Shown here: positions 11,251 through 62,722 of the stretch, piece by piece
Layout: the number at the start of each line of letters is the position of its first letter
Position numbering within the stretch: position 1 is the first letter of the stretch
Source of the DNA: Eledone cirrhosa
Lineage: Eukaryota
DNA length: 64,000 bases
Assembly: GCA_964016885.1 (NCBI GenBank)
Contig: OZ024741.1
Coordinates: forward strand, 95,542,001 to 95,606,000
Reading direction: 5' to 3'
Notes under the pieces: model-generated
Databases searched by the model: none
The model's input: the letters and a program-made list of their open reading frames with translations, nothing else
Told to the model about the DNA's origin: nothing
Made by a program: the position numbers and the translations under genes

Positions 11251-11288
11251 TAATGTCTATAATAATGATATTTATGATCTTTTCTTTG

Positions 11289-11757: not shown

Positions 11758-11760
11758 TAC

Positions 11761-11826
11761 TGAATAGCATTAAAGAATAGCATTAAAGAATAGCATTAAA
11801 GAATAGCATTAAAGAATAGCATTAAA
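11761..11826. repeat. 13-bp tandem repeat (GAATAGCATTAAA) x5
   Basis: Direct inspection. Confidence 0.9.
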
Positions 11827-15100: not shown

Positions 15101-15833
15101 ACACCTATGGACCACTATGAGGTTCCCTTTTTTAGCGTGTATTTCTAGCGCTGCAGTGAATCTCTATGTTTCCCCTATTTAGCTGCTTCTTCTAGCTCAA
15201 ATATGGACCACTATGTGTTTCCCTCCATTTAGTTGCTATTTCTAGCTCACATATGGACCACTATTAAGTTTTCCATATTTAGATACTTTTTACATCACAT
15301 CTATGGACTACTATCATGTTCCACCTATTTAGCTGCGATTTGTAGCACACATATGGGACACCATGAGGTTCCCCTTATTTAGCTGCTATTTCTAGCACAC
15401 CTATGGACCACCATGACGTTCGGTTCCCCCTATTTCTAGCACCTGTATAGATACCATGAGGTTCTTTCATTTTAGTTGCTATTTCTAGCACATGTATGGA
15501 CCACCACGTGGTTTCCCCTATTTAGCTGCTATTTCTATTACACCTATAGACCATTATGAGGTTCTCCCTATTTAGCTGCTTTTTCTAGAGCACTTATCGT
15601 AAACCATGATGCTCCCCCTATTTAGCTGGTATTTCTAGCACAATTATGGACCACTATGCGCTTTCCCCTTTTTTAGCTGTTATTTCTAGCACACCTATGG
15701 GCCACAATGTGGTCATCCCTATTTAGCTACGGTGTCGATAAAATAAAGTACCAGTAATGCACTGGGTTATTGCTGGCCTTGTGCCAAACGTGGAAACAAT
15801 TAATAGAACACTCATTGTCCACCATGAGGTTCC

Positions 15834-19900: not shown

Positions 19901-22900
19901 CACACTATATTGTGTTGTGTTCTATGTAATGTGGAAGTTACACACTATATTGTAGTGTGTTCTGTGTAATGTGGCTGTTACACACTATATTGTATTGTGT
20001 TGTGTTTGATATAGAATTTACACACTATATTGTGGTCTGCGGTGTTTGATGTGGAAGTTATATACTAAATTTTGTGATGTGTTCTGTGTAATGTAGAAGT
20101 TACACACTATATTGTGTTGTGTTGTATTTGATGTGGAAGTTACACACTATATTGTGTTGTGTTGTATTTGATGTGGAAGTTACACACTATATTGTGGTGT
20201 GTTCTATGTAATATGGAGGTTACACACTATATTGTGTTGTATTTGATGTGGAAGTTACACACTATATTGTGTTGTGTTCTATGTAATGTGGAAGTTACAC
20301 ACTATATTGTGTTGTGTTGTATTTGATGTGGAAGTTACACACTATATTGTGTTGTGTTGTATTTGATGTGGAAGTTACACACTATATTGTGGTGTGTTCT
20401 ATGTAATATGGAGGTTACACACTATATTGTGTTGTATTTGATGTGGAAGTTACACACTATATTGTGTTGTGTTCTATGTAATGTGGAAGTTACACACTAT
20501 ATTGTGGTGTGTTCTGTGTAATGTGGAAGTTACACACTATATTGTGTTGTGTTGTATTTGATGTGGAAGTTACACACTATATTGTGTTGTGTTGTATTTG
20601 ATGTGGAAGTTACACTATATTGTGTTGTGTTCTATGTAATGTGGAAGTACCACACTATTTTGTGTTGTGTTCTATGTAATGTGGAAGTACCACACTATAT
20701 TGTGTTGTATTTGATGTGGAAGTTACACACTATATTGTGTTGTGTTCTATGTAATGTGGAAGTTACACACTATATTGTGGTGTGTTCTGTGTAATGTGGA
20801 AGTTACACACTATATTGTGTTGTGTTGTATTTGATGTGGAAGTTACACACTATATTGTGTTGTGTTGTATTTGATGTGGAAGTTACACACTATATTGTGG
20901 TGTGTTCTATGTAATGTGGAGGTTACACACTATAATGTGTTGTATTTGATGTGGAAGTTACACACTATATTGTGTTGTGTTCTATGTAATGTGGAAGTTA
21001 CACACTATATTGTGGTGTGTTCTGTGTAATGTGGAAGTTACACACTATATTGTGTTGTGTTGTATTTGATGTGGAAGTTACACTATATTGTGTTGTGTTC
21101 TATGTAATGTGGAAGTTACACACTATATTGTGGTGTGTTCTGTGTAATGTGGAAGTTACACACTATATTGTGTTGTGTTGTATTTGATGTGGAAGTTACA
21201 CACTATATTGTGTTGTGTTGTATTTGATGTGGAAGTTACACACTATATTGTGGTGTGTTCTATGTAATGTGGAGGTTACACACTATAATGTGTTGTATTT
21301 GATGTGGAAGTTACACACTATATTGTGTTGTGTTCTATGTAATGTGGAAGTTACACACTATATTGTGTTGTGTTGTATTTGATGTGGAAGTTACACACTA
21401 TATTGTGTTGTGTTGTATTTGATGTGGAAGTTACACACTATATTGTGTTGTGTTGTATTTGATGTGGAAGTTACACACTATATTGTGGTGTGTTCTATGT
21501 AATGTGGAGGTTACACACTATATTGTGTTGTATTTGATGTGGAAGTTACACACTATATTGTGTTGTGTTCTATGTAATGTGGAAGTTGCACACTATATTG
21601 TGGTGTGTTCTGTGTAATGTGGAAGTTACACACTATATTGTGTTGTGTTGTATTTGATATGGAAGTTACACACTATATTGTGTTGTGTTGTATTTGATGT
21701 GGAAGTTACACACTATATTGTGGTGTGTTCTATGTAATGTGGAGGTTACACACTATATTGTGTTGTATTTGATGTGGAAGTTACACACTATATTGTGTTG
21801 TGTTCTATGTAATGTGGAAGTTACACACTATATTGTAGTGTGTTCTGTGTAATGTGGCTGTTACACACTATATTGTATTGTGTTGTGTTTGATATAGAAT
21901 TTACACACTATATTGTGGTCTGCGGTGTTTGATGTGGAAGTTATATACTAAATTTTGTGATGTGTTCTGTGTAATGTAGAAGTTACACACTATATTGTGG
22001 TGTGTTCTATGTAATGTGGAGGTTACACACTATAATGTGTTGTATTTGATGTGGAAGTTACACACTATATTGTGTTGTGTTCTATGTAATGTGGAAGTTA
22101 CACACTATATTGTGTTGTGTTGTATTTGATGTGGAAGTTACACACTATATTGTGTTGTGTTGTATTTGATGTGGAAGTTACACACTATATTGTGTTGTGT
22201 TGTATTTGATGTGGAAGTTACACACTATATTGTGGTGTGTTCTATGTAATGTGGAGGTTACACACTATATTGTGTTGTATTTGATGTGGAAGTTACACAC
22301 TATATTGTGTTGTGTTCTATGTAATGTGGAAGTTGCACACTATATTGTGGTGTGTTCTGTGTAATGTGGAAGTTACACACTATATTGTGTTGTGTTGTAT
22401 TTGATATGGAAGTTACACACTATATTGTGTTGTGTTGTATTTGATGTGGAAGTTACACACTATATTGTGGTGTGTTCTATGTAATGTGGAGGTTACACAC
22501 TATAATGTGTTGTATTTGATGTGGAAGTTACACACTATATTGTGTTGTGTTCTATGTAATGTGGAAGTTACACACTATATTGTGGTGTGTTCTATGTAAT
22601 GTGGAGGTTACACACTATAATGTGTTGTATTTGATGTGGAAGTTACACACTATATTGTGTTGTGTTCTATGTAATGTGGAAGTTACACACTATATTGTGT
22701 TGTGTTGTATTTGATGTGGAAGTTACACACTATATTGTGTTGTGTTGTATTTGATGTGGAAGTTACACACTATATTGTGTTGTGTTGTATTTGATGTGGA
22801 AGTTACACACTATATTGTGGTGTGTTCTATGTAATGTGGAGGTTACACACTATATTGTGTTGTATTTGATGTGGAAGTTACACACTATATTGTGTTGTGT

Positions 22901-25718
22901 TCTATGTAATGTGGAAGTTGCACACTATATTGTGGTGTGTTCTGTGTAATGTGGAAGTTACACACTATATTGTGTTGTGTTGTATTTGATATGGAAGTTA
23001 CACACTATATTGTGTTGTGTTGTATTTGATGTGGAAGTTACACACTATATTGTGGTGTGTTCTATGTAATGTGGAGGTTACACACTATATTGTGTTGTAT
23101 TTGATGTGGAAGTTACACACTATATTGTGTTGTGTTCTATGTAATGTGGAAGTTACACACTATATTGTAGTGTGTTCTGTGTAATGTGGCTGTTACACAC
23201 TATATTGTATTGTGTTGTGTTTGATATAGAATTTACACACTATATTGTGGTCTGCGGTGTTTGATGTGGAAGTTATATACTAAATTTTGTGATGTGTTCT
23301 GTGTAATGTAGAAGTTACACACTATATTGTGTTGTGTTGTATTTGATGTGGAAGTTACACACTATATTGTGTTGTGTTGTATTTGATGTGGAAGTTACAC
23401 ACTATATTGTGGTGTGTTCTATGTAATATGGAGGTTACACACTATATTGTGTTGTATTTGATGTGGAAGTTACACACTATATTGTGTTGTGTTCTATGTA
23501 ATGTGGAAGTTACACACTATATTGTGTTGTGTTGTATTTGATGTGGAAGTTACACACTATATTGTGTTGTGTTGTATTTGATGTGGAAGTTACACACTAT
23601 ATTGTGGTGTGTTCTATGTAATATGGAGGTTACACACTATATTGTGTTGTATTTGATGTGGAAGTTACACACTATATTGTGTTGTGTTCTATGTAATGTG
23701 GAAGTTACACACTATATTGTGGTGTGTTCTGTGTAATGTGGAAGTTACACACTATATTGTGTTGTGTTGTATTTGATGTGGAAGTTACACACTATATTGT
23801 GTTGTGTTGTATTTGATGTGGAAGTTACACTATATTGTGTTGTGTTCTATGTAATGTGGAAGTACCACACTATTTTGTGTTGTGTTCTATGTAATGTGGA
23901 AGTACCACACTATATTGTGTTGTATTTGATGTGGAAGTTACACACTATATTGTGTTGTGTTCTATGTAATGTGGAAGTTACACACTATATTGTGGTGTGT
24001 TCTGTGTAATGTGGAAGTTACACACTATATTGTGTTGTGTTGTATTTGATGTGGAAGTTACACACTATATTGTGTTGTGTTGTATTTGATGTGGAAGTTA
24101 CACACTATATTGTGGTGTGTTCTATGTAATGTGGAGGTTACACACTATAATGTGTTGTATTTGATGTGGAAGTTACACACTATATTGTGTTGTGTTCTAT
24201 GTAATGTGGAAGTTACACACTATATTGTGGTGTGTTCTGTGTAATGTGGAAGTTACACACTATATTGTGTTGTGTTGTATTTGATGTGGAAGTTACACAC
24301 TATATTGTGTTGTGTTGTATTTGATGTGGAAGTTACACACTATATTGTGGTGTGTTCTATGTAATGTGGAGGTTACACACTATATTGTGTTGTATTTGAT
24401 GTGGTAGTTACACACTATATTGTGTTGTGTTCTATGTAATGTGGAAGTTGCACACTATATTGTGGTGTGTTCTGTGTAATGTGGAAGTTACACACTATAT
24501 TGTGTTGTGTTGTATTTGATGTGGAAGTTACACACTATATTGTGTTGTGTTGTATTTGATGTGGAAGTTACACACTATATTGTGGTGTGTTCTATGTAAT
24601 GTGGAGGTTACACACTATATTGTGTTGTATTTGATGTGGAAGTTACACACTATATTGTGTTGTGTTCTATGTAATGTGGAAGTTGCACACTATATTGTGG
24701 TGTGTTCTGTGTAATGTGGAAGTTACACACTATATTGTGTTGTGTTGTATTTGATGTGGAAGTTACACACTATATTGTGTTGTGTTTTATGTAATGTGGA
24801 AGTACCACACTATATTGTGTTGTGTTCTATGTAATGTGGAAGTACCACACTATATTGTGTTGTATTTGATGTGGAAGTTACACACTGTATTGTATTGTGT
24901 TGTATTTGATGTGGAAGATACACACTATATTGTGTTGTGTTCTATGTAATGTGGAAGTTACACACTATATTATGGTGCGTTCTGTGTAATGTGGAAGTTA
25001 CACACTATATTGTGTTGTGTTGTATTTGATGTGGAAGATACACACTATATTGCGTTGTGTTCTAAGTAATGTGGAAGTTACACACTATATTGTGGTGTGT
25101 TCTGTGTAATGTGGAAGTTACACACTATATTGTGTTGTGTTGTATTTTATATGGAAGTTACACACTATATTGTGTTGTGTTCTATGTAATGTGGAAGTTA
25201 CACACTATATTGTGTTGTGTTTGATGTGGAAGTTACACACTATATTGTGTTGTGTTCTATGTAATGTGGAAGTTACACACTATATTGTGTTGTGTTTGAT
25301 GTGGAAGTTACACACTATATTGTATTGTGTTGTATTTGATGTGGAAGATACACACTATATTGTGTTGTGTTCTATGTAATGTGGAAGATACACACTATAT
25401 TGTGTTGTGTTTTATTTGATGTGGAAGTTACACACTATATTGTGTGTGTTCTATGTAATGTGGAAGTTACACACTATATTGTGTTGTGTTGTGTTTGATG
25501 TGGAAGTTACATACTATATTGTGGTGTGTTTAGTATCATGTAGATGTTACACACTATATTCTGGTGTGTGTATAGTGTGATTTTGTTGTTATACACTATA
25601 TTGTGGTGTGTTTATAAGTATCATGTTGATGTTACACACTATATTGTGGTGTGTATTTAGGGTAATGTGAAAGTTACTCTATCATGCCGTGTGTTCTGTG
25701 TGATGTGGAAGTTACACA
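16966..25718. repeat. Homogeneous 40-bp (35-bp variant) satellite with higher-order repeats
   Basis: Unit GTGGAAGTTACACACTATATTGTGTTGTGTTGTATTTGAT. The GGAGGTTA variant recurs at 17821, 18056 and 18291 (235-bp period). The GTACCACACTATTTT variant recurs at 17550, 20647 and 23862. Confidence 0.97.
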
Positions 25719-44212: not shown

Positions 44213-44321
44213 CTTCTTCTTCTTCTTCTTCTTCTTCTTCTTCTTCTTCTTCTTCCAACATTTACACACTCTCGTGTGTTTTGTTTCTCGCCTTTTTTCT
44301 TTTCTTTCTTTTTAATGACGT
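44110..44321. repeat. Unclassified repeat end abutting (TATG)n, copy 1
   Basis: (CTT)n..CATTTACACACTCTCGTGTGTTTTGTTTCTCGCCTTTT..ATGACGT is shared with ~49010-49322. Confidence 0.7.
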
Positions 44322-44372
44322 GTGTATGTATGTATGTATGTATGTATGTATGTATGTATGTATGTATGTATG

Positions 44373-44402
<30 letters not shown>

Positions 44403-44403
<1 letters not shown>

Positions 44404-45006
44404 GGTCACCAGTTGGTGCTACTGGTAACATGTATCCCAGTACAACCTGTCTCATGGTCGGGTCGTTGGCGACTAAACTGGCAACCCCACCAAGGTTTCT
44501 TGGTGAGGAGGGTGACTTTGGACGTCCTGCAGGACTAAAACAAAACCTGTCAAAGGGCAAAGGAACTCTTAAGAGTCAATGGCCATCCAAAATCACCGGG
44601 AGAGATGACCCCTTAGCCTTTGTCAAGGCAGAATTCTAGGAGAAGGAAAACTCTGATATAACACCTGCAACTCTGATGGTATCCAATGATGTTGGCTTGT
44701 TCCTCTTTTTGGTAAATATCATCTTGGTTAAGAGAGTGGGACTGGCTTTGTGCAGTGCCTTTGCTCACTATAAAAGCTTCACGGCACAGGCATTGCTTTA
44801 TATCTGGAGATCTCTCTGCACTTGTCGTCACATGGTACCAAAGGCAATGCACTATGTGTCAATAATTGTCACAAGTGTAGTGTTTGTACCAGAGTTTTCA
44901 AGTCGCTGGCTGGACTAAAGAGTCACACTCGTTCAGCGCATCGGTAGGGGTTCTCCTACATGGATATAAAGTAGTGGCCGTACTCGAAAACGAGTTGGCA
45001 GTCACC
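44403..45006 (+). mobile_element. Non-autonomous bipartite derivative of the zinc-finger RTE family
   Basis: 44634-44796 aligns with the RTE 5'UTR at 50169-50351. 44870-44947 encodes HKCSVCTRVFKSLAGLKSHTRSAHR*, matching the last RTE finger. The tail GGCCGTACTCGAAAACGAG..GGCAGTCACC matches 54225-54256. Flanked by (TATG)n on both sides. Confidence 0.85.
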
Positions 45007-45087
45007 ATGTATGTATGTATGTATGTATGTATGTATGTATGTATGTATGTATGTATGTATGTATGTATGTATGCATGTATGTATGTA

Positions 45088-45226
45088 AGAAACTCCTTTC
45101 CAGAAATAACTTCTGGAAAAAAGAGGACATGTGTGACGTCTGAACGAATATCCTCCACCTCCAACTATCTTACCCTCCGCCTCTGTGCCCCGGTCGACAG
45201 GATGGAGAATACATTGCCCCGTAGGA
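45088..45226 (-). mobile_element. CRE-like 3' end with a (TACA)n tail
   Basis: Near-identical to 62359-62498, which continues into CRE endonuclease-coding sequence. Confidence 0.75.
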
Positions 45227-45228
45227 CG

Positions 45229-46255
45229 TTCACTTATTCATGAGAGGGTCGTGGGGACAGAGTCCCTAAACACTCCTTCCAGCGGATCCTGTCAGAAGTA
45301 ACCATTTTCAAATGACTCGGCTGGATCCTCTAACGAGAGCAGCCGAGCTCATGGATGTTATCCAACCGGCTTACTCTGGGTCTACTCTTGTGCCCTTCCG
45401 GTTGGTTTTACCCGTAAAATCTGTACAACGATTCTTTTCTGAAACATTCTAATCACATGGCCATAATACCCGAGCTGAGAAGTAGCGACTCTACCTGGAG
45501 TAACTCTCCGATGTCATAGCCACGCACTCTATTGAGTAACGTTACTCCAGAGACCCTTCAGAGGAACCCCATTTCAGCCGTTTGTATTCGCGATCGTATT
45601 CTTTCAGTCATTACCCAAGGTTCATAGCCATAGGCAAGGGCCGGCCGAATGCCGAATTGAAGATGGTAAATTTTGCTTTTACACCTACCTCCCTTCTTCT
45701 GATAACTGAATGTTGAGGCTGGCACATTACTGCACCAGCTCCTGCAATTCTTTCACTTAATTCAGCCTCTTACCTTCTATTGCTCGTGAACAGGACCCCA
45801 AGATACTTGAACTTCTCCACCTGCTTTAGTGTAACTCCATTCACATATAGCGTGTACTGCGCAGGCTACCTTAAAAAGATGAGCGTCTCAGATTTCGCAG
45901 CACTGATTTTCATTTCAGCCATGCAGCACTCGGCATCAAACCTATCAAGTGTATATCAGAGATCACCTTCTGTCAAGTTAGGTAACACCATGTCATCTGC
46001 AAATTCCTTGCCAGACGTAATTCCACTTCCAATCTAGTTACGCATGCCAATCCTGTTCATGTAAATAATGAACAAGAGAGGTGACAGTACGTACCCTTGG
46101 TGGACTCCAACTTCCACATTGAATTGTTTCGATTTAGAACCATTTATCCGAACATAAATACTCGGACATTCGTATAGACACACTAGGCAACAAGAAGTTG
46201 ACCATCGATCCCATACTCATGCAGAGCCTTCTACAGTCCAGTGGTACGCCTTCAT
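45229..46255 (-). mobile_element. RTE-clade (Expander/Rex3-like) LINE fragment, decayed RT plus 3' end
   Basis: Minus-strand remnants VGVHQGYVLSPLLFIIYM, FADDMVL, VEKFKYLGV and SRIQTAEMGFL. Homologous to 11289-11757. Confidence 0.85.
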
Positions 46256-49009: not shown

Positions 49010-49322
49010 AACGTATGTCTCTCACTGAACTGACCATACATCGTTTCTTTCTTTCCTATTGACATCTTTAAAGTTGTCTTTTACATGTCAACATCGCCTT
49101 CTGTTCAATAGTTATACATAGTTTCATAGTTCACTGTTGCTAGTGTCACTCATATAAACATAACGCGCCATTAGACTCTTCTTCTTCTTCTTCTCATCCT
49201 ACTCCTCCTCATCCTCGTCATCCTTCTTCTTCTTCTTCTTCTTCTTCTTTCCCATAACCATTTACACACTCTCGTGTGTTTCGTTTCTCGCCTTTTTTTC
49301 TTTTCTTTCTTTTTCATGACGT
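49010..49322. repeat. Unclassified repeat end abutting (TATG)n, copy 2
   Basis: Homologous to 44110-44321. Confidence 0.7.
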
Positions 49323-49442
49323 AAGTATGTATGTATGTATGTATGTATGTATGTATGTATGTATGTATTACAACAACAACAACAACAGCGGCATCAAAAC
49401 ATAAAAAAAAGGAAGGGAAAAGAAAAAAGAAAAGGGAAGGGG

Positions 49443-50077: not shown

Positions 50078-50079
<2 letters not shown>

Positions 50080-50380
50080 GCGGGGACATAGAAATAATCG
50101 GGCTGGATGCCCGATCGCGCAGTTAAACCACTGGGAGTGAAGAACCCCTAGCCCATGTCAGGGTATTCTTCTAGGAGAAGGCATCTCAGGAAACTGGGTT
50201 AACTCCGATATAAAACCTGCGGCTCAGTAGTTACCGATGATGTTGATCTTTTCTTCTTTTCGGGTTATAGCTACTGTCGCTCAGAGAGTGGGATTGGTTC
50301 AGTGCACAGTCTTTCCTCACTTTAAAAATATTCGTCACGCACAGGCATTGCACGAGTGCATTAATAATTATTAATAGTGT

Positions 50381-50415
<35 letters not shown>

Positions 50416-50420
50416 TATTA

Positions 50421-50461
<41 letters not shown>

Positions 50462-53400
50462 CCCAATTCAATGATGTTCCAGAACAATGTAAACGAGATA
50501 ATTGCCAATTTGGGTTCTGGAACAAAAAAGATCATTGGCAATAAGGGCAGGGGCCCCAAGTTATCACAACCTGGGCCCGCCCGTCATCGTGCCATTGTAA
50601 TAGAGCCAAACAGGGCATTTAGTCTTGGCTGCTGGAACGTACGGACGCTGCTTGACAGGGATTCTTTGGAGCGTCCTGAACGAAGGACCGCTCTTGTTGC
50701 GAAGGAGCTTCGACGTTACGATCTTGACATCGTGGCTTTGTCTGAGACGAGGTTAGCTGGAGATGGTCATCTTACGGAATTTTGTGGAGAATATACATTC
50801 TTCTGGAAAGGAAGAGATGAAGGAACCAGAAGAGAGGCTGGGGTAGGATTTGCTGTTAAGACTGTACTGGTGAATAAATTGGAAGAATTCCCAGTGGGGA
50901 TTAGTGAGCGTCTTATGTCCATGAGAGTTCCGCTGGACAAGGGAAGATATGCTACCCTGGTGAGTGTGTATGCTCCAACTATGAATTCTGTCGATGAAGA
51001 AAAACTGTCCTTTTACCATGCCTTGAAAGGTGTTTTAAGAAATATCCCTCAGGCAGACAAAGTCATCGTGCTTGGTGACTTTAATGCTAGAGTGGGTAGG
51101 GATTTTAACACATGGAATGTAATCGGAAGGCATGGGGTGGGAAAGTGTAACAGCAATGGTATGCTCTTGCTGCAGATGTGTGAGGAGCTGGATCTGTGTG
51201 TTACCAACACCATGTTCCAACAAAAGAACAAATTCAAGACCACATGGATGCATCCTGCATCTAAGGAATGGCATCTTTTGGACTACGTCCTAGTCAGGAT
51301 GCGTGACAGACAGGATGTGCGGTGTGTTCGTGTTCTTCGTGGAGCTGAGTGCTGGACGGACCACCGCCTGGTACGCGCAAAAGTGAATCTAATCACCAAA
51401 CGTAAAATCCGGGCTCCTGGTGTTGCCCTGCCCAAAAGATTGAATGCTGCTCGTCTTGAGGATAAAAATGTGAAGAGGACATTGGAAGAAGAGATGCAGG
51501 CTGCAGATCTTGGTGAGGATTGGCCGACCCTTAAAAAGTCGGTTTATGATGTAGGCAGACGTGTTCTGGGATTGGTGCAGAGAAAACATCAGGACTGGTT
51601 TAATGAGAAAGATGTGCATATAGATGACTTGTTGGCTGATAAGAGGCGCGCTCTGTCACGCTACTTGACGGCAAGACCACAGGAGAGGAATACGTTGCAT
51701 GAGGAGCTCAGGGATGTAAAATCACGTGTTAGGCGGAGTCTTTCTCAGATGAAGGATCAGTGGTGGAGTGAGAAGGCTGGTGAGATACAAACTGCGTCTG
51801 ATTGCAATAACACAAAGCTGTTGTACAGTCTCTTGCGTGAGGTTTATGGACCGTCTTCTTCTCTGGTGACACCGATTCGCAGCAGGGATGGCAAAGAACT
51901 TCTTCGTGACTCGCAGGGAATTCTACGAAGGTGGCGGGAGCACTTTGATGATCTTTTGAATCAGCCGTCTGTCGTCAGTGAGGATTTCCTCAATCTCATT
52001 CCGGAAAGTCCTGTGAAAGTAGCTCTCGCAGAGCCTCCGACACTTGTGGAGGTTGCAGTGGCTATTTCGAAGCTGAACAGTGGAAGATCTCCAGGTATGG
52101 ATGGCATACATGCTGAGCTCCTACAATATGGTGGTGAGAGACTCCTGCAACATCTTCACTCTCTGTTTGGAAGGATATGGGCTAATGAATCCGTGCCTGA
52201 GGACTGGAGAGATGCAGTAATGGTGGTCTTGTACAAGGGAAAGGGTAACAGGAATGATTGTGGGAACTACAGAGGTATATCATTGCTTTCTGTCGTGGGG
52301 AAAGTTTTATGTAGGGTGCTTCTGGACCGTCTGCTGACACACATTGCAGATTGTGTCCTTCCTGAAAGTCAATCTGGTTTTCGTGTTGGACGCGGCACTA
52401 CTGATATGATCTTCTCAGCTAGACAGCTCCAGGAGAAGTGCATTGAACAGGGCTTGAATCTGTATCAGGTTTTTGTCGATCTGACAAAGGCTTTCGATAC
52501 TGTCAACAGAGATGCATTATGGAAGGTTCTCCAGAAACTTGGTTGCCCTGATAAGTTCCTTGCTTTAGTTAGGTCTTTCCATGACGACATGAAGGCTTGG
52601 GTTAATGTCGGAGGTAACATGTCGGAGCCTATCTCAGTAAAAAATGGAGTGAAACAGGGGGATATTCCAGCACCGACCCTGTTTGCCATATACTTTGCAA
52701 TGGTTTTCTGTGTTGCATTCAGGAATTGCGAGCATGGTGTTTACATCCGATATCGAACCTCAGGCAGCATATTTAACATCAGGCGCTTTGCTGCGAAGAC
52801 AAAAGTATTTACATCAGTCATAAGAGACCTCTTGTATGCAGATGATTGCGATCTTGTAGCGCACACAGAGAGTGATATGCAGCACATTTTGAATGTATTT
52901 TCTGACGCTTGCACTGCCCTGGGTTTGACTGTCAGTCTCAAGAAAACCGTCGTCATGTACCAACCTGCACCTGGTGGGCAGTACACTGAACCAAACATCT
53001 ATGTGTATGGCAAACGACTTGGAGTGGTTGATCAGTTTGTCTACCTGGGAAGCACTGTCAATCGATACGGCAACCTTGACGGTGAAATCTCACTTAGGAT
53101 TAGGAAAGCAAGTGATGCTTTCGGAAAGCTAGAAAGGCGACTCTGGGGTCGGCGAGACATATGCAGGAGGACAAAGGTAAGGGTGTACAGGGCATGTGTA
53201 CTCTCTTGTCTTCTTTATGCCTGCGAGACCTGGGTCACATATCGACGCCACCTTAAGCAATTGGAGCGTTTCCATCAGATGTGTCTCAGACGGATACATG
53301 GCGTTCGCTGGAGGGACCACATCAGTGATGTCGAGATTTTGGAAAGCTCTATGTGTGACAGTATAGAAGCTCTTGTGCTTAAGCAGCGACTCCGTTGGAG

Positions 53401-54024
53401 TGGTCACCTTGCCAGGATGAAGGATTCTAGAATACCAAAACAACTCTTCTATGGAGAGTTGGTTAAAGGAAAACGACCGCCACATAAACCAAAAAAGAGG
53501 TATAAGGATTCCTTGAAGGCCTCTCTGAAAGACGCTAACATCTCTGCTGATGCATGGGAAAATATTGCTGCTGATCGTAATAAATGGAGAAAGACTGTAT
53601 ATGAGGGAAAAGTTGCCTTTGAGGCATCTCGAATCGCACACGAGAAAGTAAAGCGGGACGTGAGGAAGGGTATTGCTGTTGCACTTCCAGACGGCGAGGG
53701 TCCTCCTATGTTTCTGACATGCAGCGTCTGTGCGAGACTCTGCCTAAGCAAAGCTGGACTCGAAAGTCATCTTCGCAGTCATAAAGTAAGACCAGTGGTT
53801 GACTACCAGGCTGCTGTTGGAGATGCTACTCATCATGCTTGCCAAACATGTGGTAGAGAATGTAAATCAGCAGGAGGACTCAAGCGACATGCAAAAGTAC
53901 ACGAACTCCAACCACAGCCGACTATTCCCAGTAAATGTTTTGGTTGCCGACTCTGTGCGAGACATTTTGGATCATTGGCTGGGCTAAAAAGCCACATTCG
54001 ATCGCAGCACTGTTAGTTGCTATC

Positions 54025-54062
<38 letters not shown>

Positions 54063-54141
54063 GCTTATGTGCGTGCGTGTGTGTGTATATATATATGAAT
54101 ATGTATATTATTATTGTTGTTGTCGTTATTATTATTATTGC

Positions 54142-54217
<76 letters not shown>

Positions 54218-54256
54218 TGTGCAATGGCCATACTCGATAACGAGGGGGCAGCCATC
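50078..54256 (+). mobile_element. RTE-clade LINE with an intact ORF and a (TATG)n tail
   Basis: 5'UTR homologous to the 44.4-kb mini-element, a single long ORF, and a 3' stem-loop CTCGATAACGAG followed by (ATGT)n. The true 5' boundary is uncertain because of the poly-T upstream. Confidence 0.92.
50471..54016 (+). CDS. RTE polyprotein: APE endonuclease, reverse transcriptase and three C2H2 zinc fingers (1181 aa)
   Basis: APE motifs WNVRTL, VALSETR, VYAPT, GDFNARVG, LDYVLV, TDHRLV. RT motifs YRGISLLS, QSGFR, FVDLTKAFDTV, GVKQGD, LYADD, YLGS. Fingers CSVC..HLRSH, CQTC..HAKVH, CRLC..HIRSQH. Confidence 0.95.
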   Translation: MMFQNNVNEIIANLGSGTKKIIGNKGRGPKLSQPGPARHRAIVIEPNRAFSLGCWNVRTLLDRDSLERPERRTALVAKELRRYDLDIVALSETRLAGDGHLTEFCGEYTFFWKGRDEGTRREAGVGFAVKTVLVNKLEEFPVGISERLMSMRVPLDKGRYATLVSVYAPTMNSVDEEKLSFYHALKGVLRNIPQADKVIVLGDFNARVGRDFNTWNVIGRHGVGKCNSNGMLLLQMCEELDLCVTNTMFQQKNKFKTTWMHPASKEWHLLDYVLVRMRDRQDVRCVRVLRGAECWTDHRLVRAKVNLITKRKIRAPGVALPKRLNAARLEDKNVKRTLEEEMQAADLGEDWPTLKKSVYDVGRRVLGLVQRKHQDWFNEKDVHIDDLLADKRRALSRYLTARPQERNTLHEELRDVKSRVRRSLSQMKDQWWSEKAGEIQTASDCNNTKLLYSLLREVYGPSSSLVTPIRSRDGKELLRDSQGILRRWREHFDDLLNQPSVVSEDFLNLIPESPVKVALAEPPTLVEVAVAISKLNSGRSPGMDGIHAELLQYGGERLLQHLHSLFGRIWANESVPEDWRDAVMVVLYKGKGNRNDCGNYRGISLLSVVGKVLCRVLLDRLLTHIADCVLPESQSGFRVGRGTTDMIFSARQLQEKCIEQGLNLYQVFVDLTKAFDTVNRDALWKVLQKLGCPDKFLALVRSFHDDMKAWVNVGGNMSEPISVKNGVKQGDIPAPTLFAIYFAMVFCVAFRNCEHGVYIRYRTSGSIFNIRRFAAKTKVFTSVIRDLLYADDCDLVAHTESDMQHILNVFSDACTALGLTVSLKKTVVMYQPAPGGQYTEPNIYVYGKRLGVVDQFVYLGSTVNRYGNLDGEISLRIRKASDAFGKLERRLWGRRDICRRTKVRVYRACVLSCLLYACETWVTYRRHLKQLERFHQMCLRRIHGVRWRDHISDVEILESSMCDSIEALVLKQRLRWSGHLARMKDSRIPKQLFYGELVKGKRPPHKPKKRYKDSLKASLKDANISADAWENIAADRNKWRKTVYEGKVAFEASRIAHEKVKRDVRKGIAVALPDGEGPPMFLTCSVCARLCLSKAGLESHLRSHKVRPVVDYQAAVGDATHHACQTCGRECKSAGGLKRHAKVHELQPQPTIPSKCFGCRLCARHFGSLAGLKSHIRSQHC

Positions 54257-54325
54257 ATGTATGTATGTATGTATGTATGTATGTATGTATGTGTGTATGT
54301 ATGTGTGTGTGTGTGTGTGTGTGTA

Positions 54326-54414
<89 letters not shown>

Positions 54415-54514
54415 ATGTGTGTATGTATGTGTGTGTGTGTATGTATGTCTGTCTGTCTGTCTGTGTGTGTGCATGATTATGTATGTATGTATGTATGTAT
54501 GTGTGTGTGTGTGT

Positions 54515-54580
<66 letters not shown>

Positions 54581-54613
54581 ATGTATGTATGTGTATATAT
54601 GTATGTATGTATG
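54257..54613. repeat. (TATG)n/(TG)n compound microsatellite
   Basis: Direct inspection. Similar tracts lie at 58667-58910, 59141-59895, 60277-60334 and 61861-62358. Confidence 0.95.
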
Positions 54614-57600
54614 TTATCTCTTTCTCTTAATTTCGAGTATATTTTTTTTGACCGGCCACCTTCCTGGTGGCAAGGTTGTAAAAGAAAAGAAATTGTCATC
54701 CCTTGAATCGCAAGAATGTTTTGCAAATTTTGAAGGTGCCAGCTATCGCAGCCATTTGTAGTCTATGAATTAGGGAGCTGCGCTTTTTGTCCGCAAATCC
54801 AAGTTCAGTCATACTTTGGTCCAAGCGGGTTGGTATATAACCCGTAGCTCCAATAATGATGGGTATGAAGCTAAAGGTGTATCTTGGATACTGGATTTGT
54901 AAACTCCTCATCAATGGTCCGTAAATGTCCTCCTTCTCCTGTATTTTTCTGACAACGTTTACATCAAGTGGGCAGCTGATCTCCACAACAGAACACGTTT
55001 TCAATGTGTGGTCCTAAACAACAATATCAGGCCGGTTGTGCTTTTATTTGGTGGCAGTTTTTATTTTCAGGTTCCACCAGTATTCCTTAGTGCCATCTGT
55101 CTCAATATATTCCTCCTCGTTTGTTGTTAATTTTGTTTTCCGAAGTGCGTTCCAGATGGTTCTAGCTATCCCATCGTGTCTCATGGGGAGGTAGTAGCGA
55201 GATGACATTCTTTCGAAGCTGGCAACAATGTGGCTTACATCCTCGATCTTTGTTTTACATAGCCTACATTTATTGTCAGCTGCAGGCCCTCCTCTTTTGT
55301 GCAGCAGATATTTGGTAGGGAGTTCTTGTTCCTGTATTGCATAGAGATATCCCTCAAGGTGTGATGTCATAAACTTGTCGGAACTCCATGCCAGGCTTTT
55401 GAGTGGTTTATCCCCTCTATGGTCTGTGTTTTACGCCTCAAGTATCCATGCACAACTTTTTCTGTAAATTGGTCAATTTTTTTTATCTTGTTTGAACATT
55501 GAATAGGATCTTCCAATTTCTCTGGGTGAGAGATTTATATCAGGCTTTATTCCATATCTCTCCTCCAGATCAGTCGCTATTCTAATGATATTTTTTTTTT
55601 CATGCTCATAAACCTGGGCAAGATGGTTGTCAACCTTTTTCCTCTGTTGAAGGTGTTGCTTTAGTGTTACTATCCGGGTCTCATATGTTGTTAATATTGA
55701 TTTTAGACCCGGCCACCTTCCTTGCGTGAGAAGTATAGCCTATCCACATCACCATTGATGTTAAAGTTCCCAGTAACACTGAGAAGTTTTCGAGTTCTAA
55801 CATCCATCTCACTTAGTTCTTGCAATGACCAGTTCAGCAGGCCAAATGTTGGCGTTAGAATTGGCACAGCATAAGTATTGTGGGCAATGTATTTGTTGTA
55901 TGCTGACAGTTCTGATGACCATATTTTCTTTACTCTTCTGAGGTATTCAGTTCTGGTTCTCTCCTTATTTATGGGTCCATCATATCTGACATTCTCATCC
56001 TGTCCAAGATATCTGTAGTTGTCACCTGACTGCAGAGGTTGTATTGTCAGGCCGTTCATCTCTAGATTTCTAGAGGAGGGCACAGCTCTTCCACGTTTTA
56101 CTGCCAAATATGCACACTTGGACTCACCAAATCTCATTTTGATGTCGGTTGAAAATTGTGTAATGAGGTCCAATTGTTTCTTGATGTCATTGATATTCGG
56201 CCCATACAACTTCAGGTCATCAACAAAGAAAAGATGGGAGATACTTCTGGGCCCACTTCTTTGTCCACCTTGTTTCCTGAGTAGGTAAGATAGTGGATTC
56301 AGTGAGAGAACGAAGAGTAGCACTGAGAAGCTATAACCCTGAAAGATTCCCTTCTGGTAATGTATCTTATCAGTTTTAACTTGCTCCTTCTCACCTCTAA
56401 GGATCAAATTGGTGTACCAGTTCTTGGTCAGGCGTTCAACAGCAGCTACCAATGGTTGTGGGACTTTAGCTAACTGTAAAGCCTTAATAATCCACCCATG
56501 AGGTACACTATCAAATGCTTTTTGATAGTACAGCCACACCACAGTCATGTTTCTGCGATTCTTTGTTGTTTTTTTTTCTGAATCATTTTGTTAGTTAGTA
56601 GGTGATCTATGCACCCCCCCACACCTCCCTCTTTCCACCAGCTTGCTCAGGTGTTATGATGTTGTTGGTAGCACAGTGATCCTGTAAGAACAGGTTAAGG
56701 CACCCAGTATATCATTTATACATGATGTTTTGGCAGGCTATTGGGCGGTAATTTTTAGCAAGGGTGGTTTGGCTATTTTTGGGAATGAGGAGAGTAGTGG
56801 CAGTTGATAACCAACTGGGCAGTTCTTGTGTGCCTTTAATGGTTTCTGTAAACAACGGTATGAGATCTTGCCGATAGAAAGTGAAATTCTTCAACCAGTA
56901 TCCTGTAATGAGGTCTGGGCCTGGCGATTTCCTATTCGACATTTTCTGTAGAGCTGTTTCCAGTATTGACCCATCTATGTCATATTGTTTTATCTGGTCA
57001 TGTTGGCAGTAGTCCTGTTCCAGTTCTTTTAGCCAATTAGTTTGTCTGTTGAATCCGTCATCCGTTTCCCATACAGATCTCCAGTAGCTCTCAACCTGTT
57101 CTTTTGAAGGGGTGTCGTTTACATGGATTGAGCTTTTGCCACCGAAGCTGCGATAAACTGATTTAGGATCTCTGGCAAACAATCTATTTAGCACGTGTCG
57201 TTTATGTGCTGTTGACTTATATTTTAGTCTTTCTGTTGTAGCTGTGTGTTGTTGTTTCAACTGGTGTAATTTGGAGTTCAAAGTTTTAAATTTTGTATCT
57301 CCAAATCGTCTCTCTAACTTTTTCTTTAGGTCTTCCTGGTGTCGTGTGAAATTGCTCTCTATGTTGCATTTCATAACGACTGCGATGTGTGAGATACTTC
57401 GTCTCAGGGACAAGATTTTGGTTTTTAAATTTCGCATCCACGCTGGTTCAGGCTTTCTGTTTGTATCTTGATTGCGTGGTTTTAGATGTGTGTTATATGA
57501 TAGCAATGTGACAGCTGAAACATATAACAAAACATTAAGCGTTTCAAATGTCGTTTCTACACCTTTAGATCGTATAGCTTTCAGATAATTGCCAGCTATT

Positions 57601-58664
57601 TCGTTCACCGCTTCCAATTCCAATTTAGTGGGTTCTTTACTGACTCTAGTGTTGTATGGTCTGTCACTCACATTAAGGCTGTGTATCTCTTGAAACATAT
57701 CGTTCCATATCACTTGTAGGGTGTCCACAAGTTTTTGGTGCTCTGTTTGTTCAGTAGAGTCATGAATTTCAGCCTCGTTGTTGATGTGGTGACAATTACT
57801 ACTAGAGTTAGCTGACCTTTCTCGCTGTTCTTCAGTGGAAGTGGGATGGATTTCAGCAAAATTGTTGGTGAGCTGTTCACTGTTAGATTTAGCTGGCCAT
57901 TCTCTTTGCCTGTCAGTGGAGGTGGGGTGGTTGTCTACAAGGGCTGTATTTGTAGTATCACTCAATTCCGTTAGATGTATCAATTTACATCTAATGATAC
58001 GTTTTGCCTGTTCATTTAAATGCTTTGGAGAAAAGTCTAATTCTGGGTGTTTGGAGTTCCATAAAGTTTTTAGCCTTTGCATAAAACCGAACTTTTGGGG
58101 TTCAGATTGTTTGTATGCTTCATATAATACTTTGTTAAGCTCGTAGCTCCACTGTATACAACGGTTGTAGTTGCGATATGGTCGAAGGAGACTTGTACTT
58201 TTTGCCATGATGAGTTCGTCTATTCACTAATATTTCGTATTTATTTTTCAAAATAGTCGATGATCTTCTTTAAAAGTTTCGACAAAGTTCTGTCAGAATC
58301 AAATTTAAAGTTATTCACAGCTTGGGTAATATTTCTTTTCAGTTAGTTTTTAATTCTACAACTGTGTTTTAAACGTTGTTCTTGAATCGTTTGAATCGAG
58401 AACAAAAAGAACCGTTACTTAGTATATTTCTTTATGAATGTAATATAATATAACAACACTGTATTTATATGTTAAAGTTTATGTATAATTCATATAAATA
58501 GGTGTTTTACAACACACTTACAGTTCAAACACTTATGTAGAATTATTGTATGTAATCTTACCGCGTAATGTAGCGCAACTTTTTCCAATATATGGTATGT
58601 TGCCTTCATGTAAGCCGTAATTACACACGTCCGATTATCGGACACTGACCACAACGGTCGCCAT

Positions 58665-58666
<2 letters not shown>
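54614..58666 (-). mobile_element. Near full-length R4/Dong-like RLE non-LTR retrotransposon, frameshifted
   Basis: The broken ORF carries KSPGPDLITGYWLK, NYRPIAC, KAFDSVPH, GIFQG, HLFFVDDLKLY, YRYLG, RLYFSRKEGGR, CRLC..HIV and VVEISCP. The 5' leader is about 460 bp. Both ends abut (TATG)n. Confidence 0.9.
54696..58208 (-). pseudogene. Disrupted RT plus CCHC plus restriction-like endonuclease ORF of the Dong-like element
   Basis: ORF pieces 56712-58208, 55703-56548, 55044-55370 and 54696-55004 are collinear parts of one protein. Copy 3 retains the intact motif KHNRPDIVVWD..VVEISCP. Confidence 0.88.
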
Positions 58667-58696
<30 letters not shown>

Positions 58697-58910
58697 TGTA
58701 TGTATGTATGTATGTATGTATGTGTGTGTGTATGTATGTATGTATGTATGTATGTATGTATGTATGTATGTATGTATGTATGTATGTATGTATGTATGTA
58801 TGTATGTGTCTGTCTGTCTGTCTGTGCGTGTGCGTGTGTATGTATGTATGTATGTATGTATGTATGTATGTATGTATGTATGTATGTATGTATGTATGTA
58901 TGTATGTATG

Positions 58911-59140
58911 TTATCTCTTTCTCTTAATTTCGAGTATATTTTTTTTGACCGGCCACCTTCCTGGTGGCAAGGTTGTAAAAGAAAAGAAATTGTCATCCCT
59001 TGAATCGCAAGAATGTTTTGCAAATTTTGAAGGTGCCAGCTATTGCAGCCATTTGTAGTCTATGAATTAGGGAGCTGCGCTTTTTGTCCGCAAATCCAAG
59101 TTCAGTCATACTTTGGTCCAAGCGGGTTGGTATATAACCC
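58911..59140 (-). mobile_element. Dong-like element copy 2 (230-bp 3' end)
   Basis: Almost identical to 54614-54843. (TATG)n on both sides. Confidence 0.92.
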
Positions 59141-59169
59141 ATGTATGTATGTATGTATGTATGTATGTA

Positions 59170-59206
<37 letters not shown>

Positions 59207-59223
59207 ATGTATGTATGTATGTA

Positions 59224-59276
<53 letters not shown>

Positions 59277-59577
59277 ATGTATGTATGTATGTATGTATGT
59301 ATGTATGTATGTGTGTGTATGTATGTATGTATGTATGTATGTGTGTGTGTGTGTGTATGTGTGTGTGTATGTATGTATGTATGTATGTATGTAAGTATGT
59401 GTATGTCTGTCTGTCTGTCTGTCTGTGTGTGCGTGTGTATGTATGTATGTATGTATGTATGTATGTATGTATGTGTGTATGTGTGTGTGTATGTATGTAT
59501 GTAAGTATGCCTGCATGTATGTATGTATGTATGTGTGTGTATGTAAGTATGTATGTATGTATGTATGTATGTATGCA

Positions 59578-59610
<33 letters not shown>

Positions 59611-59771
59611 ATGTATGTATGTATGTATGTATGTATGTATGTATGTGTGTATGTATATATGTATGTGTGTATGTATGTATGTATGCATGTATGTGTGTGT
59701 GTGTATGTATGTATGTATGTATGTATGTATGTATGTATGTATGTATGTGTGTATGTATGTATGTGTGTATG

Positions 59772-59805
<34 letters not shown>

Positions 59806-59895
59806 TGTGTGTATGTATGTATGTGTGTATGTATATATGTATGTATGTATGTATGTGTGTATGTATGTATGTATATATGTGTGTATGTATGTATG

Positions 59896-60276
59896 TTCTT
59901 CTGGTTTTATAATTTCACAAAGTTTTACCAATAGAGAGAGGGTCGGTTTCTAACATAGACACAAGACTCTCTCAATGGAATTTACACAACATCAACTAGG
60001 TAGATATGAATGCATGCATGCATGCATGTGTAGATATGGATGTTATTGTATGTGTGGATGTGTATCTTTTGAGTTGTATGTGTGATGTGTATATGCTTTG
60101 TATCTGTACATGTGTATATGCAGTTATTAGATGCAAAATTTTTGGAATGTTTTACATATTTTTACTGTTCCATTAATGGATTGTACTTGTAATTTCCTAA
60201 CTAGTTGTGTTCTTTCTGTTCCTGTGAAGCCTAGCTTCTCAAGATTTGTATTGAGGCAGTTACTAACATATCCCAG
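59896..60276 (-). mobile_element. 3' end of a second, diverged Dong-like subfamily
   Basis: LGYVSNCLNTNLEKLGF..RKLQVQSINGTVKICKTFQKF aligns with TGYIPTRLDQSMTELGF..HRLQMAAIAGTFKICKTFLRF. The 3'UTR differs. (TATG)n on both sides. Confidence 0.8.
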
Positions 60277-60334
60277 TGTATGTATGTATGTATGTATGTA
60301 TGTATGTATGTATGTATGTATGTATGTATGTATG

Positions 60335-61860
60335 TTTTCTCTTTCTCTTAATTTTGAGTATATTTTTTTGACCGGCCACCTTCCTGGTGGCAAGGTTGTA
60401 AAAGAAAAGAAATTGTCATCCCTTGAATCGCAAGAACGTCTTGCAAACTTTGAAGGTGCCAGCTATCGCAGCCATTTGTAGACTATGAATTAGGGAGCTG
60501 CGCTTTTTGTCCGCAAATCCAAGTTCAGTCATACTTTGGTCCAAGCGGGTTGGTATATAACCCGTAGCACCAATAATGATGGGTATGAAGCTAAAGGTGT
60601 ATCTTGGATACTGGATTTGTAAACTCCTCATCAATGGTCCGTAGATGTCCTCCTTCTCCTGTATTTTTCTGACAACGTTTACATCAAGTGGGCAGCTGAT
60701 CTCCACAACAGAACACGTTTTCAATGTGTGGTCCCAAACCACAATATCAGGCCGGTTGTGCTTTAATCTGGTGGCAGTTTCTACCTTCAGGTTCCACCAG
60801 TATTCCTTAGTGCCATCTGTCTCAATATATTCTTCCTCGTTTGTTGTTAATTTTGTTTTCCGAAGTGCGTTCCAGATGGTTCTAGCTATCCCATCGTGTC
60901 TCATGGGGAGGTAGTAGCGAGATGACATTCTTTCGCAGCTGGCAACAATGTGGCTTACATCCTCGATCTTTGTTTTACATAGCCTACATTTATTGTCAGC
61001 TGCTGGCCCTCCTCTTTTGTGCAGCAGATATTTGGTAGGGAGTTCTTGTTCCTGTATTGCATAGAGATATCCCTCAAGGTGTGATGTCATAAACTTGTCG
61101 GAACTCCATGCCAGGCTTTTTGAGTGGTTTATCCCCTCTATGGTCTGTGTTTTACGCCTCAAGTATCCATGCACAACTTTTTCTGTAAATTGGTCAATTT
61201 TTTTTATCTTGTTTGAACATTGAATAGGATCTTCCGATTTCTCTGGGTGAGAGATTTATATCGGGCTTTATTCCATATCTCTCCTCCAGATCAGTCGCTA
61301 TTCTAATGATATTTCTTTTTTCATGCTCATAAACCTGGGCAAGATGGTTGCCAACCTTTTTCCTCTGTTGAAGGTGTTGCTTCAGTGTCACTATCCGGGT
61401 CTCATTGGTTGTTAATATTGATTTTAGACCCCGGCCACCTTCCTTGCGTGAGAAGTATAGCCTATCCACATCACCATTGATGTTAAAGTTCCCAGTAACA
61501 CTGAGAAGTTTTCGAGTTCTAACATCCATCTCACTTAGTTCTTGCAATGACCAGTTCAGTAGGCCAAATGTTGGCGTTAGAATTGGCACAGCATAAGTAT
61601 TGTGGGCAATGTATTTGTTGTATGCTGACAGTTCTGATGACCATATTTTCTTTACTCTTCTGAGGTATTCAGTTCTGGTTTTCTCCTTATTTATGGGTCC
61701 ATCATATCTGACATTCTCATCCTGTCCAAGATATCTGTAGTTGTCACCTGACTGCAGAGGTTGTATTGTCAGGCCGTTCATCTCTAGATTTCTAGAGGAG
61801 GGCACAGCTCTTCCACGTTTTACTGCCAAATATGCACACTTGGACTCACCAAATTTCATT
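60335..61860 (-). mobile_element. Dong-like element copy 3 (1.5 kb, 5'-truncated)
   Basis: Highly similar to 54614-56139 with independent substitutions. Intact CCHC (CRLC..H..SC) and RPD..D..E motif. (TATG)n on both sides. Confidence 0.92.
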
Positions 61861-61921
61861 ATGTATGTATGTATGTATGTATGTATGTACGTTTGTATGT
61901 ATGTATGTATGTATGTATGTA

Positions 61922-61956
<35 letters not shown>

Positions 61957-61987
61957 ATGTATATATGTATGTATGTATGTATGTATG

Positions 61988-62058
<71 letters not shown>

Positions 62059-62101
62059 ATGTGTGTGTATGTATGTATGTGTGTGTGTGTGTGTGTGTAT
62101 G

Positions 62102-62198
<97 letters not shown>

Positions 62199-62203
62199 AT
62201 GTA

Positions 62204-62250
<47 letters not shown>

Positions 62251-62251
62251 A

Positions 62252-62286
<35 letters not shown>

Positions 62287-62358
62287 ATGTATGTATGTAT
62301 GTATGTATGTATGTATGTATGTATGTATGTATGTGTATGTATGTGTGTGTATGTATGT

Positions 62359-62722
62359 AAAAATTCCTTTCCAGAAATAACCTCTGGAAAAAAGAGGGAA
62401 TGTGTGACGTCAGAACGAATATCCTCCACCTCCAACTAACTTACCCTCCACCTCTGGGTCCTGATCGACAGGATGGAGAATACATTGCCCCGTAGGATAG
62501 TGAGGAACAGTCACTTCACCTGGCGGGGCTGGCACCTGCAGGCAGCTAACTCCGCTCCGATAGTAGTGAGTAGCGTTGTGGTCCTGTGGCCAAGAACGCC
62601 GGAAGTCTCCACAGATTCAGACTCTACCACAAACCTATCAGAGAACGGCCGATACTTGGACAGTTTGCCCTCATCGGCCTGGCACGCAGCAGAGCCTGGG
62701 CTGGCAGCCGAACGCACCAGGT
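62359..62722 (-). mobile_element. CRE-like 3' fragment with a (TACA)n tail
   Basis: SAACQADEGKLSKYRPFSDRFVVESESVETSGVLG..LLTTIGAELAACRC aligns with the C-terminus of the element at 32.9 kb. Confidence 0.85.

Follow-up and report, generated by a model that had tools for sequence, protein, structure and literature searches.

We describe here a cluster of four retrotransposon copies in a stretch of the Eledone cirrhosa genome (NCBI GenBank assembly GCA_964016885.1, contig OZ024741.1, positions 95,542,001 to 95,606,000 of the forward strand); this whole stretch, 64,000 nucleotides in length, is referred to as the window, and all coordinates are given within it. The copies, which come from two families of an R4/Dong-like lineage without long terminal repeats (non-LTR), are stacked one behind the other, with every one of their junctions in the four-letter repeat (ACAT)n, seen as TATG on the plus strand. 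We consider it quite probable, largely by analogy with R2 and Dong, that this is because the element's own protein recognises and cuts the repeat.

The four copies

Copy A (54614-58666, 4053 bp) is a near full-length R4/Dong-like non-LTR element, and is followed by copy B (58911-59140, 230 bp), copy C (59897-60277, 381 bp) and copy D (60335-61860, 1526 bp), all four lying head to tail on the minus strand; these coordinates and sizes agree with those of an initial annotation, made from the letters of the window. B and D are 5'-truncated copies of A's family, B consisting of its 3' end and D carrying one frame change near 61200. As had been claimed, alignment of the three shows a 3' end identical in position and different points of 5' truncation, at A 54843 for B and at A ~56139 for D. 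Over 1526 bp, 29 substitutions and 3 indels separate A and D, and A and B differ at one of 230 positions. Copy C, likewise a 5'-truncated 3' end, has a coding part of 49 codons (60130-60276, minus strand) and a 3' untranslated region (UTR) of 230 nt. Nucleotide comparison gives no match between C and A at E<1e-3, and of 47 C-terminal residues 19 are the same in D; C is therefore a second, separate family of A's lineage, where the initial annotation had seen two 'subfamilies'; its best tblastn match, among 34 relative loci, is to locus L004 (67% over 49 amino acids).

Four independent insertions had also been proposed. This holds for A and D, given their 29 substitutions, and for C, as a member of another family, but need not hold for B: with a single difference in 230 positions, substitutions are no proof of its independence from A. 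As a separate observation, B (at 59139) and C (at 60273), members of different families, are both truncated at the homologous codon, equivalent to residue 1110 of protein P0003, which is possibly a shared pause or microhomology hotspot.

Junctions and arrays in the window

On the sense strand, the 3' end of the element is followed directly by ACATACAT in all four copies, in one common phase. At the 5' end, the element is preceded by CATACAT in A, B and D (A having an additional AT), and in C the junction falls between CATAC and A, such that 8 of 8 window junctions adjoin (ACAT)n. The extra AT at the 5' end of A is missing from one contig of sequencing run X2, and we therefore place the likely start of the element at 58665.

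The cluster is embedded in five arrays, none of which is assigned a strand. The first (54257-54613), a compound of (TATG)n and (TG)n, runs from the 3' end of an RTE-type element to copy A and begins as the tail of the former; the second (58667-58910), mostly TATG, is at once the 5' flank of A and the 3' flank of B; the third (59141-59896), a compound of TATG and TG, lies between B and C; the fourth (60278-60334) is a (TATG)14 run between C and D; and the fifth (61861-62357) separates D from the 3' end of an RTE-type fragment, D's 5' flank running into the (CATA)n tail of that fragment at 62358. TATG runs account for 1128 (59%) and TG runs for 482 (25%) of their 1911 bases. No large target-site duplication is visible around A or B in the array patterns, short ones being unreadable in pure repeat. 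Across the window, runs of four or more TATG units lie on the plus strand in 36 of 36 cases, with no such CATA run, and cluster at 3.4, 44-45, 49 and 54-62 kb.

Coding capacity and class

Copy A has one open reading frame (ORF) on the minus strand, from an ATG at 58208 to a stop at 54696-54698, with a 5' UTR of ~460 nt and a 3' UTR of 82 nt. The frame is interrupted by stops and by five indels, and since every one of these indels sits in a homopolymer run, some may be assembly errors; the copy can be aligned, in three pieces, to an intact relative of 1158 amino acids, from residue 5 to residue 1156. Whilst the first 503 amino acids have no Pfam match, residues 15-85 (57954-58166, minus strand) are modelled as a Myb/SANT-like three-helix domain, predicted to be a DNA-binding module. 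The mean predicted local distance difference test (pLDDT) score of this AlphaFold model is 74.5, and its best structural match is the DNA-binding domain of Zeste (a middling Z of 6.6, root-mean-square deviation 2.3, 64 residues aligned), followed at lower Z by Sap1, GT-1 and many Myb/SANT domains.

The reverse transcriptase (RT) piece of A (55706-56590, minus strand) is in frame, carries an FVDD motif and matches Pfam RVT_1 (E 2e-15); its closest named homologue is a protein of Argonauta hians, at 67% identity. Further downstream features are taken from copy D, where a CCHC zinc finger (60935-60988, minus strand; C-X2-C-X8-H-X4-C, the last Cys being Phe in copy A) is accompanied by the PD...E motif of a putative restriction-like endonuclease (RLE) core (60695-60754, minus strand). 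The structure model of D's C-terminal 279 residues has a pLDDT of 90.6, and all seven of its Foldseek matches at E<=0.001 are R2 proteins (TM 0.64-0.72). There is no Pfam match to the apurinic/apyrimidinic endonuclease (APE) family in these copies or in 35 aligned members, and the ORF of the neighbouring RTE-type element does match it.

R4/Dong elements are described as having a single ORF with a divergent Myb/SANT N-terminus lacking zinc fingers, an RT and an RLE (PMC7998251). The predicted layout seen here, a single ORF with a central RT, a C-terminal CCHC finger and RLE with no APE, and a Myb/SANT-like N-terminus without zinc fingers (best Z 6.6, and homologous there to a louse/beetle profile), supports the R4/Dong-like identity first proposed, as does the fold. 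None of the 8 window junctions lies in TAA, the target by which Dong in its narrow sense is defined, and the R2-like endonuclease sets the element apart from Waldo of the R1 clade, which has an APE.

The element's 5' end contains a conserved RNA element, a GGACGTG motif lying 15-40 nt from the end and common to A (58540-58666, minus strand) and the relatives L001, L002 and L003, with weaker forms in L005 and L010. In A it follows two short hairpins and precedes a long stem, the first 127 nt having a folding z of -3.46. The Dong element of Bombyx mori has been shown to carry a 5' self-cleaving ribozyme of the hepatitis delta virus (HDV) type (PMC3774820); Rfam gave no ribozyme match here, and an HDV-like descriptor search, run without a positive control, found none in 10 sequences. 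Rfam matches to mir-297, mir-1277 and sno_ZL1 fall on the repeats themselves, below threshold, and those to mir-10 and isrG are weak and also below threshold; all were set aside.

Junctions in other sequencing runs

Four of 23 sequencing runs were mapped to copy A with 16 bases of TATG flank on each side. Depth falls steeply from 3' to 5' in X2 and X7 (in X2 from a summed word depth of ~538,000 to 6,000), as fits a high-copy, 5'-truncated family. From 2,078 loose ends of mapped reads and contigs, 24 are listed, 13 of them on the 5' side of the element, and (TATG)n is found in 3 of these 13. Two are truncations absent from the window, one at 55133 (X2, 2 contigs) and one at 55350 (X21, 445 reads, possibly from one locus), and the third is the full-length 5' end at 58667 (X2, 1 contig). 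Reads of X21 extend beyond the ends of the mapped stretch in 2,773 cases, and depth at 54615 is 2,702, figures in keeping with a TATG flank at the majority of 3' ends in this run.

Of the other 5'-side ends listed, two are likely chimeras at AATT sites, four continue the element across A's indels and four further ones, from X1, look like diverged relatives, the last two groups being judged by eye. The deep X21 loose ends at 54629, 54694, 54726 and 54771 were rejected as library chimeras, as they fall on AATT sites with an agreement of 0.35.

Relatives, their flanks and phylogeny

Two scans gave 42 relative loci, 16 of which (L001-L014, L019 and L020) have 44-59% RT identity to A and form the close set; L034 was left out, its 56% identity extending over just 25 residues. 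A four-letter array is found at a flank in 10 of these 16. L002 and L003, at 56% RT identity, are full-length and have (ACAT)n at either end, oriented as in the window, and (ACTT)n flanks L001 on both sides, L004, L005 and L010 on the 5' side, and L007, L008, L011 and L012 on the 3' side. Amongst the other 26 loci, ACAT or ACTT is found in none, and AAT or AAAT in six (L016, L017, L021, L037, L039 and L040); within the close set, AAT occurs at one flank of L008 only. The lineage is thus wider than first thought, in that it also includes families flanked by (ACTT)n. A scan of viral contigs yielded no relative.

Two further observations concern the more distant loci. L035-L042 are eight Dong-like loci on short contigs in bacterial assemblies, three with (TAA)n flanks, and are likely to be contaminating animal DNA. 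At the 5' end of L017, an AAT-group element, a tRNA-like match (positions 84-167, 30.3 bits) directly follows the (AAAT)n flank, and may be a nested short interspersed element (SINE) or a tRNA-derived head.

Trees were built from chosen subsets of proteins, with 66 rows (broad RT), 47 and 29 rows (two C-terminal alignments) and 33 rows (careful RT). No row is a named Dong, R4, Rex6, HERO, NeSL or CRE sequence; a Pediculus protein, lepidopteran proteins and AAT-flanked loci stand in for Dong, Pediculus being a species named with the R4/Dong-like elements of PMC7998251. Long-branched outgroups are present in the 66-row tree only, whose root was not used because of these long branches and because its careful tree search was unfinished, and the other trees are midpoint-rooted.

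In the 33-row tree, the four-letter group is split from a group of named arthropod and Clytia proteins plus AAT-flanked loci with support of 100/100, and the same split between four-letter and AAT/insect rows receives 100 in both C-terminal trees. RT identity is 45-60% within the four-letter group, and 35-43% to the named arthropod and Clytia proteins, with one at 27%. The ACAT rows and the Argonauta protein form one clade with support of 95, 96 and 95 in the 66-, 47- and 29-row trees, respectively. Flank type changes twice on the 33-row tree, the minimum number, and none of 2000 shuffles gave as few, a result that is overstated as kin share labels. A profile built from the close relatives can be aligned to the louse/beetle group over 1107 columns that begin close to the N-terminus and extend to the C-terminus.

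Neighbouring elements and other repeats

The cluster is bounded on one side by a full-length RTE-type long interspersed element (LINE; 50078-54259, plus strand) and on the other by a 3' fragment of a second RTE-type family. The former has an unbroken ORF of ~1180 amino acids, encoding an APE endonuclease, an RT and C-terminal C2H2 fingers; its 5' flank is poly(T), its 3' UTR consists chiefly of microsatellites, its 3' end passes into (TATG)n, and by description it resembles RTE-2_OV of PMC9115989. The fragment (62358-62500, minus strand) carries a tail of (CATA)n, is joined to non-repeat sequence at its 5' end and is 88% like 45094-45226. It belongs to a decayed family with (CATA)n tails, also present at 45086-46230 (minus strand) and 11288-11765, which in two places faces an RTE-type element, tail towards tail, over an intervening TATG array (45007-45086 and 54257-62357). 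The partner at the first of these sites is a non-autonomous, RTE-derived element (44401-45007, plus strand) with an RTE-like 3' end and part of its 5' region 67% like the RTE 5' UTR. RTE elements have been described as generating microsatellites from their tails (PMC2887409), and for this reason we think that the 54-62 kb array probably originated as the tail of the RTE element next to it.

Elsewhere in the window, a repeated element of ~65 bp occurs at 44256-44325 and 49250-49325, each time with a run of (TTC)n on one side and of (TATG)n on the other, and may be the terminal part of a SINE or of some other family associated with repeats. There are also two large minisatellite arrays, at 16968-25718 and 12200-15730, with units of 40 bp (~223 copies, with a higher-order period of 195/235 bp) and 50 bp.

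Discussion

Synthesising these findings, a preference for (TACA)n, the same repeat as (ACAT)n, is supported, as the initial annotation had it: (TATG)n junctions recur in other sequencing runs, and ACAT lies on both sides of L002 and L003. Counted at the 5' end, the target repeat is present at 4 of 4 junctions in the window, at three of the loose ends listed and at 2 of 2 for the ACAT-flanked relatives. The evidence from outside is stronger than that of the window alone, which is weak.

We propose the following model for how the stack might have been built. By analogy with R2 and Dong, a single protein would bind its own RNA, its N-terminal Myb-like domain and C-terminal RLE together selecting a run of (ACAT)n. 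The (ATGT)n strand would then be nicked, so that its 3' end could prime reverse transcription from the 3' end of the RNA, probably assisted by a few CAUA units carried on that RNA. Copying would often end early, to give 5' truncations. Since repeat would remain on both sides, each insertion would renew the target, and copies could therefore pile up head to tail in one orientation. The model draws on the observed anatomy of the copies, their junction sequences, the truncation gradient, the flanks of the relatives and the match between flank type and tree; the specificity of cleavage and the role of the Myb-like domain we infer by analogy.

A number of observations weigh against this proposal. 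Within the window, every 5' flank doubles as the tail side of the upstream neighbour; the direct (CATA)n noted earlier at every 5' junction is there in 4 of 4 cases, but is weaker evidence of something beyond a tail than it was taken for. That all four 5' junctions fall in TATG rather than TG has a chance probability of ~0.12 within the arrays (0.59^4), and a preference for ACAT over AC within arrays, judged on the window only, is not significant. The arrays also attract several families of element: (TATG)n lies to either side of the RTE-derived element at 44401-45007, and the two RTE-type families both terminate in TATG/CATA repeats. As for the junctions in other runs, 24 of 2,078 loose ends are a sample and not a genome-wide fraction. 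Amongst the relatives, L008 has AAT rather than ACTT as its 5' flank; no array follows the 3' end of L004, L005 and L010 over the 581, 846 and 329 nt of contig present there, respectively; and 6 of the 16 close loci have no array, their contigs breaking off within the element or close to it. Independence is also limited among the relatives: going by the names of their contigs, a single assembly supplied L002 and L003 and two assemblies the ACTT loci, and L007 and L011 belong to the same family. Finally, the ACAT rows are not resolved as a clade in the careful, 33-row RT tree.

Some of the same observations could be explained if the RNA, rather than the protein, led the way: a CAUA tail would pair with exposed (ATGT)n DNA and a loose endonuclease would do the rest, the preference then being real, and found too in RTE families bearing that tail. 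The TATG on both sides of 44401-45007, the two RTE-type families meeting tail to tail in the arrays at 45007-45086 and 54257-62357, the ACTT tail and AAT 5' flank of L008, and the fact that some 5' junctions (55350) can be read as short microhomologies are all in keeping with this. The RTE-type elements themselves, however, serve as controls, and their 5' junctions lie outside ACAT in 3 of 4 window cases, whereas those of the Dong-like copies lie inside it in 4 of 4 cases and those of L002 and L003 in 2 of 2; moreover, related RLE clades are mostly target-specific (PMC4640811). We consider an RNA-led route unlikely as the whole explanation, and note that the two are not exclusive, in that pairing may assist priming by a target-selecting protein too.

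Nor is it exclusive to suppose that the stack arose partly through local duplication or unequal exchange in an unstable microsatellite, or through mis-assembly, leaving fewer than four insertions, with B derived from A. The near identity of A and B (1 difference in 230) and a (TCTG)4-5 motif repeated in 3 of the 5 arrays would be expected on this account, and the homopolymer indels of A fit assembly error. Against it, B has a sharp 5' junction of its own, sharing its phase with that of D; 29 substitutions set A and D apart, and at 6 of them the mapped sequencing runs agree with D; C belongs to another family; and the flanks seen in other samples are left unexplained. We therefore regard duplication as a rather improbable source of the pattern. 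That there is no targeting at all, with wide insertion of an element having a (CATA)n tail, survival in repeat-rich regions and tails that abut by accumulation, is very improbable: the window is indeed very rich in simple repeats, and for Drosophila Waldo-A/B a case has been made for passive accumulation close to CA repeats (PMC3812793), but outside the cluster ACAT runs make up just 288 of 55,899 bases (0.5%) compared with 968 bases in AT runs and 660 in AC runs, the type of flank agrees with the tree, and L001, L002 and L003, single elements with repeat on both sides, largely refute it.

If the protein does select its target, then the element works like Dong on a different repeat, and does so within a wider lineage having ACAT and ACTT flanks. 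Dong targets TAA in silkworm, mosquito and snail (PMC3812793), and the Dong of Bombyx mori, DongAg, DongBg and the ostracod Dong1/2, all RLE elements of the R4 clade, share with the present element a single ORF with a Myb/SANT-like N-terminus, an RT, an RLE and insertion into microsatellites (PMC7998251, PMC3812793); they differ in their target, for which we find (ACAT)n here and, in sister families, (ACTT)n, and the RT groups are separate clades. It is likely, then, that this lineage homes to four-letter repeats, unlike the three-letter TAA of its kin. In the trees, the ACAT group has ACTT families to either side, a pattern suggesting, on midpoint roots, that ACTT came before ACAT. We would go further only tentatively, giving a little under an even chance to the idea of an undescribed sister lineage of Dong, re-tuned from AAT to ACTT to ACAT, with at least two cephalopod families living on ACAT arrays sown by RTE elements.

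The initial annotation knew of no described tetranucleotide TACA target in this clade. Among R4/Dong elements this stands within the literature searched, in that full-text searches including five phasings of ACAT gave no four-letter target (ACTT was not among the terms, and Repbase and Dfam are not covered); among non-LTR elements at large the target is not new, as WaldoAg1, WaldoAg2 and WaldoFs1 of the R1 clade insert into ACAY microsatellites, which include ACAT (PMC3812793). Waldo has an APE, where here the predicted C-terminal endonuclease is R2-like with no APE match in Pfam, and a common ACAT target would therefore be convergent. R2 itself (R2Bm, R2Tg), the model for target-primed reverse transcription, provides the best solved relatives by sequence profile (E 4e-54) and by C-terminal fold; it differs in its N-terminal zinc fingers plus Myb and its 28S rDNA target (PMC7998251, PMC3774820), no such fingers being seen here, where the profile match starts at position 358-387. 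Togen, a NeSL-related element specific for (TG)n, and some HERO families are also microsatellite-specific RLE elements (PMC4640811), of other clades; the N-terminus found here fits the pattern of the Dong type.

Among molluscs, R4-Dong is nearly confined to cephalopods (PMC10294476). A Dong consensus with a full ORF has been described in Octopus bimaculoides (PMC9115989), and in O. vulgaris five recently active Dong-R4 families with 1129 insertions have been reported (PMC13282606). As the nearest named homologue comes from Argonauta, the element described here is probably one of these octopus Dong-R4 families, with which it was compared by description only. No insertion target is named for them in the sections searched: 'target site' and 'TACA' are absent from those sections of PMC13282606, as is 'target site' from those of PMC9115989 and PMC8967140, and the sections of PMC7650587 add nothing further on Dong; four target terms are likewise absent from PMC12988792.

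How R2-like retrotransposons change target is an open question with practical weight, given that their enzymes are under development for gene insertion (PMC13580325). Domain swaps among the AAT, ACTT and ACAT families, which are sufficiently close for this, would tell apart reading by the Myb domain, preference of the endonuclease and pairing of the RNA tail; should the re-tuned sister lineage prove real, it would offer a natural series within one enzyme family, with targets one letter apart, alongside convergence with the APE-type Waldo. For the octopus genome, in which Dong-R4 contributes the most recently active insertions of any LINE subdivision in O. vulgaris (1129 of 2533; PMC13282606), a repeat target would account for the placing of these copies. 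Fresh insertions could also escape short-read callers because of it, and this may have some bearing on the low Dong activity reported in PMC9115989.

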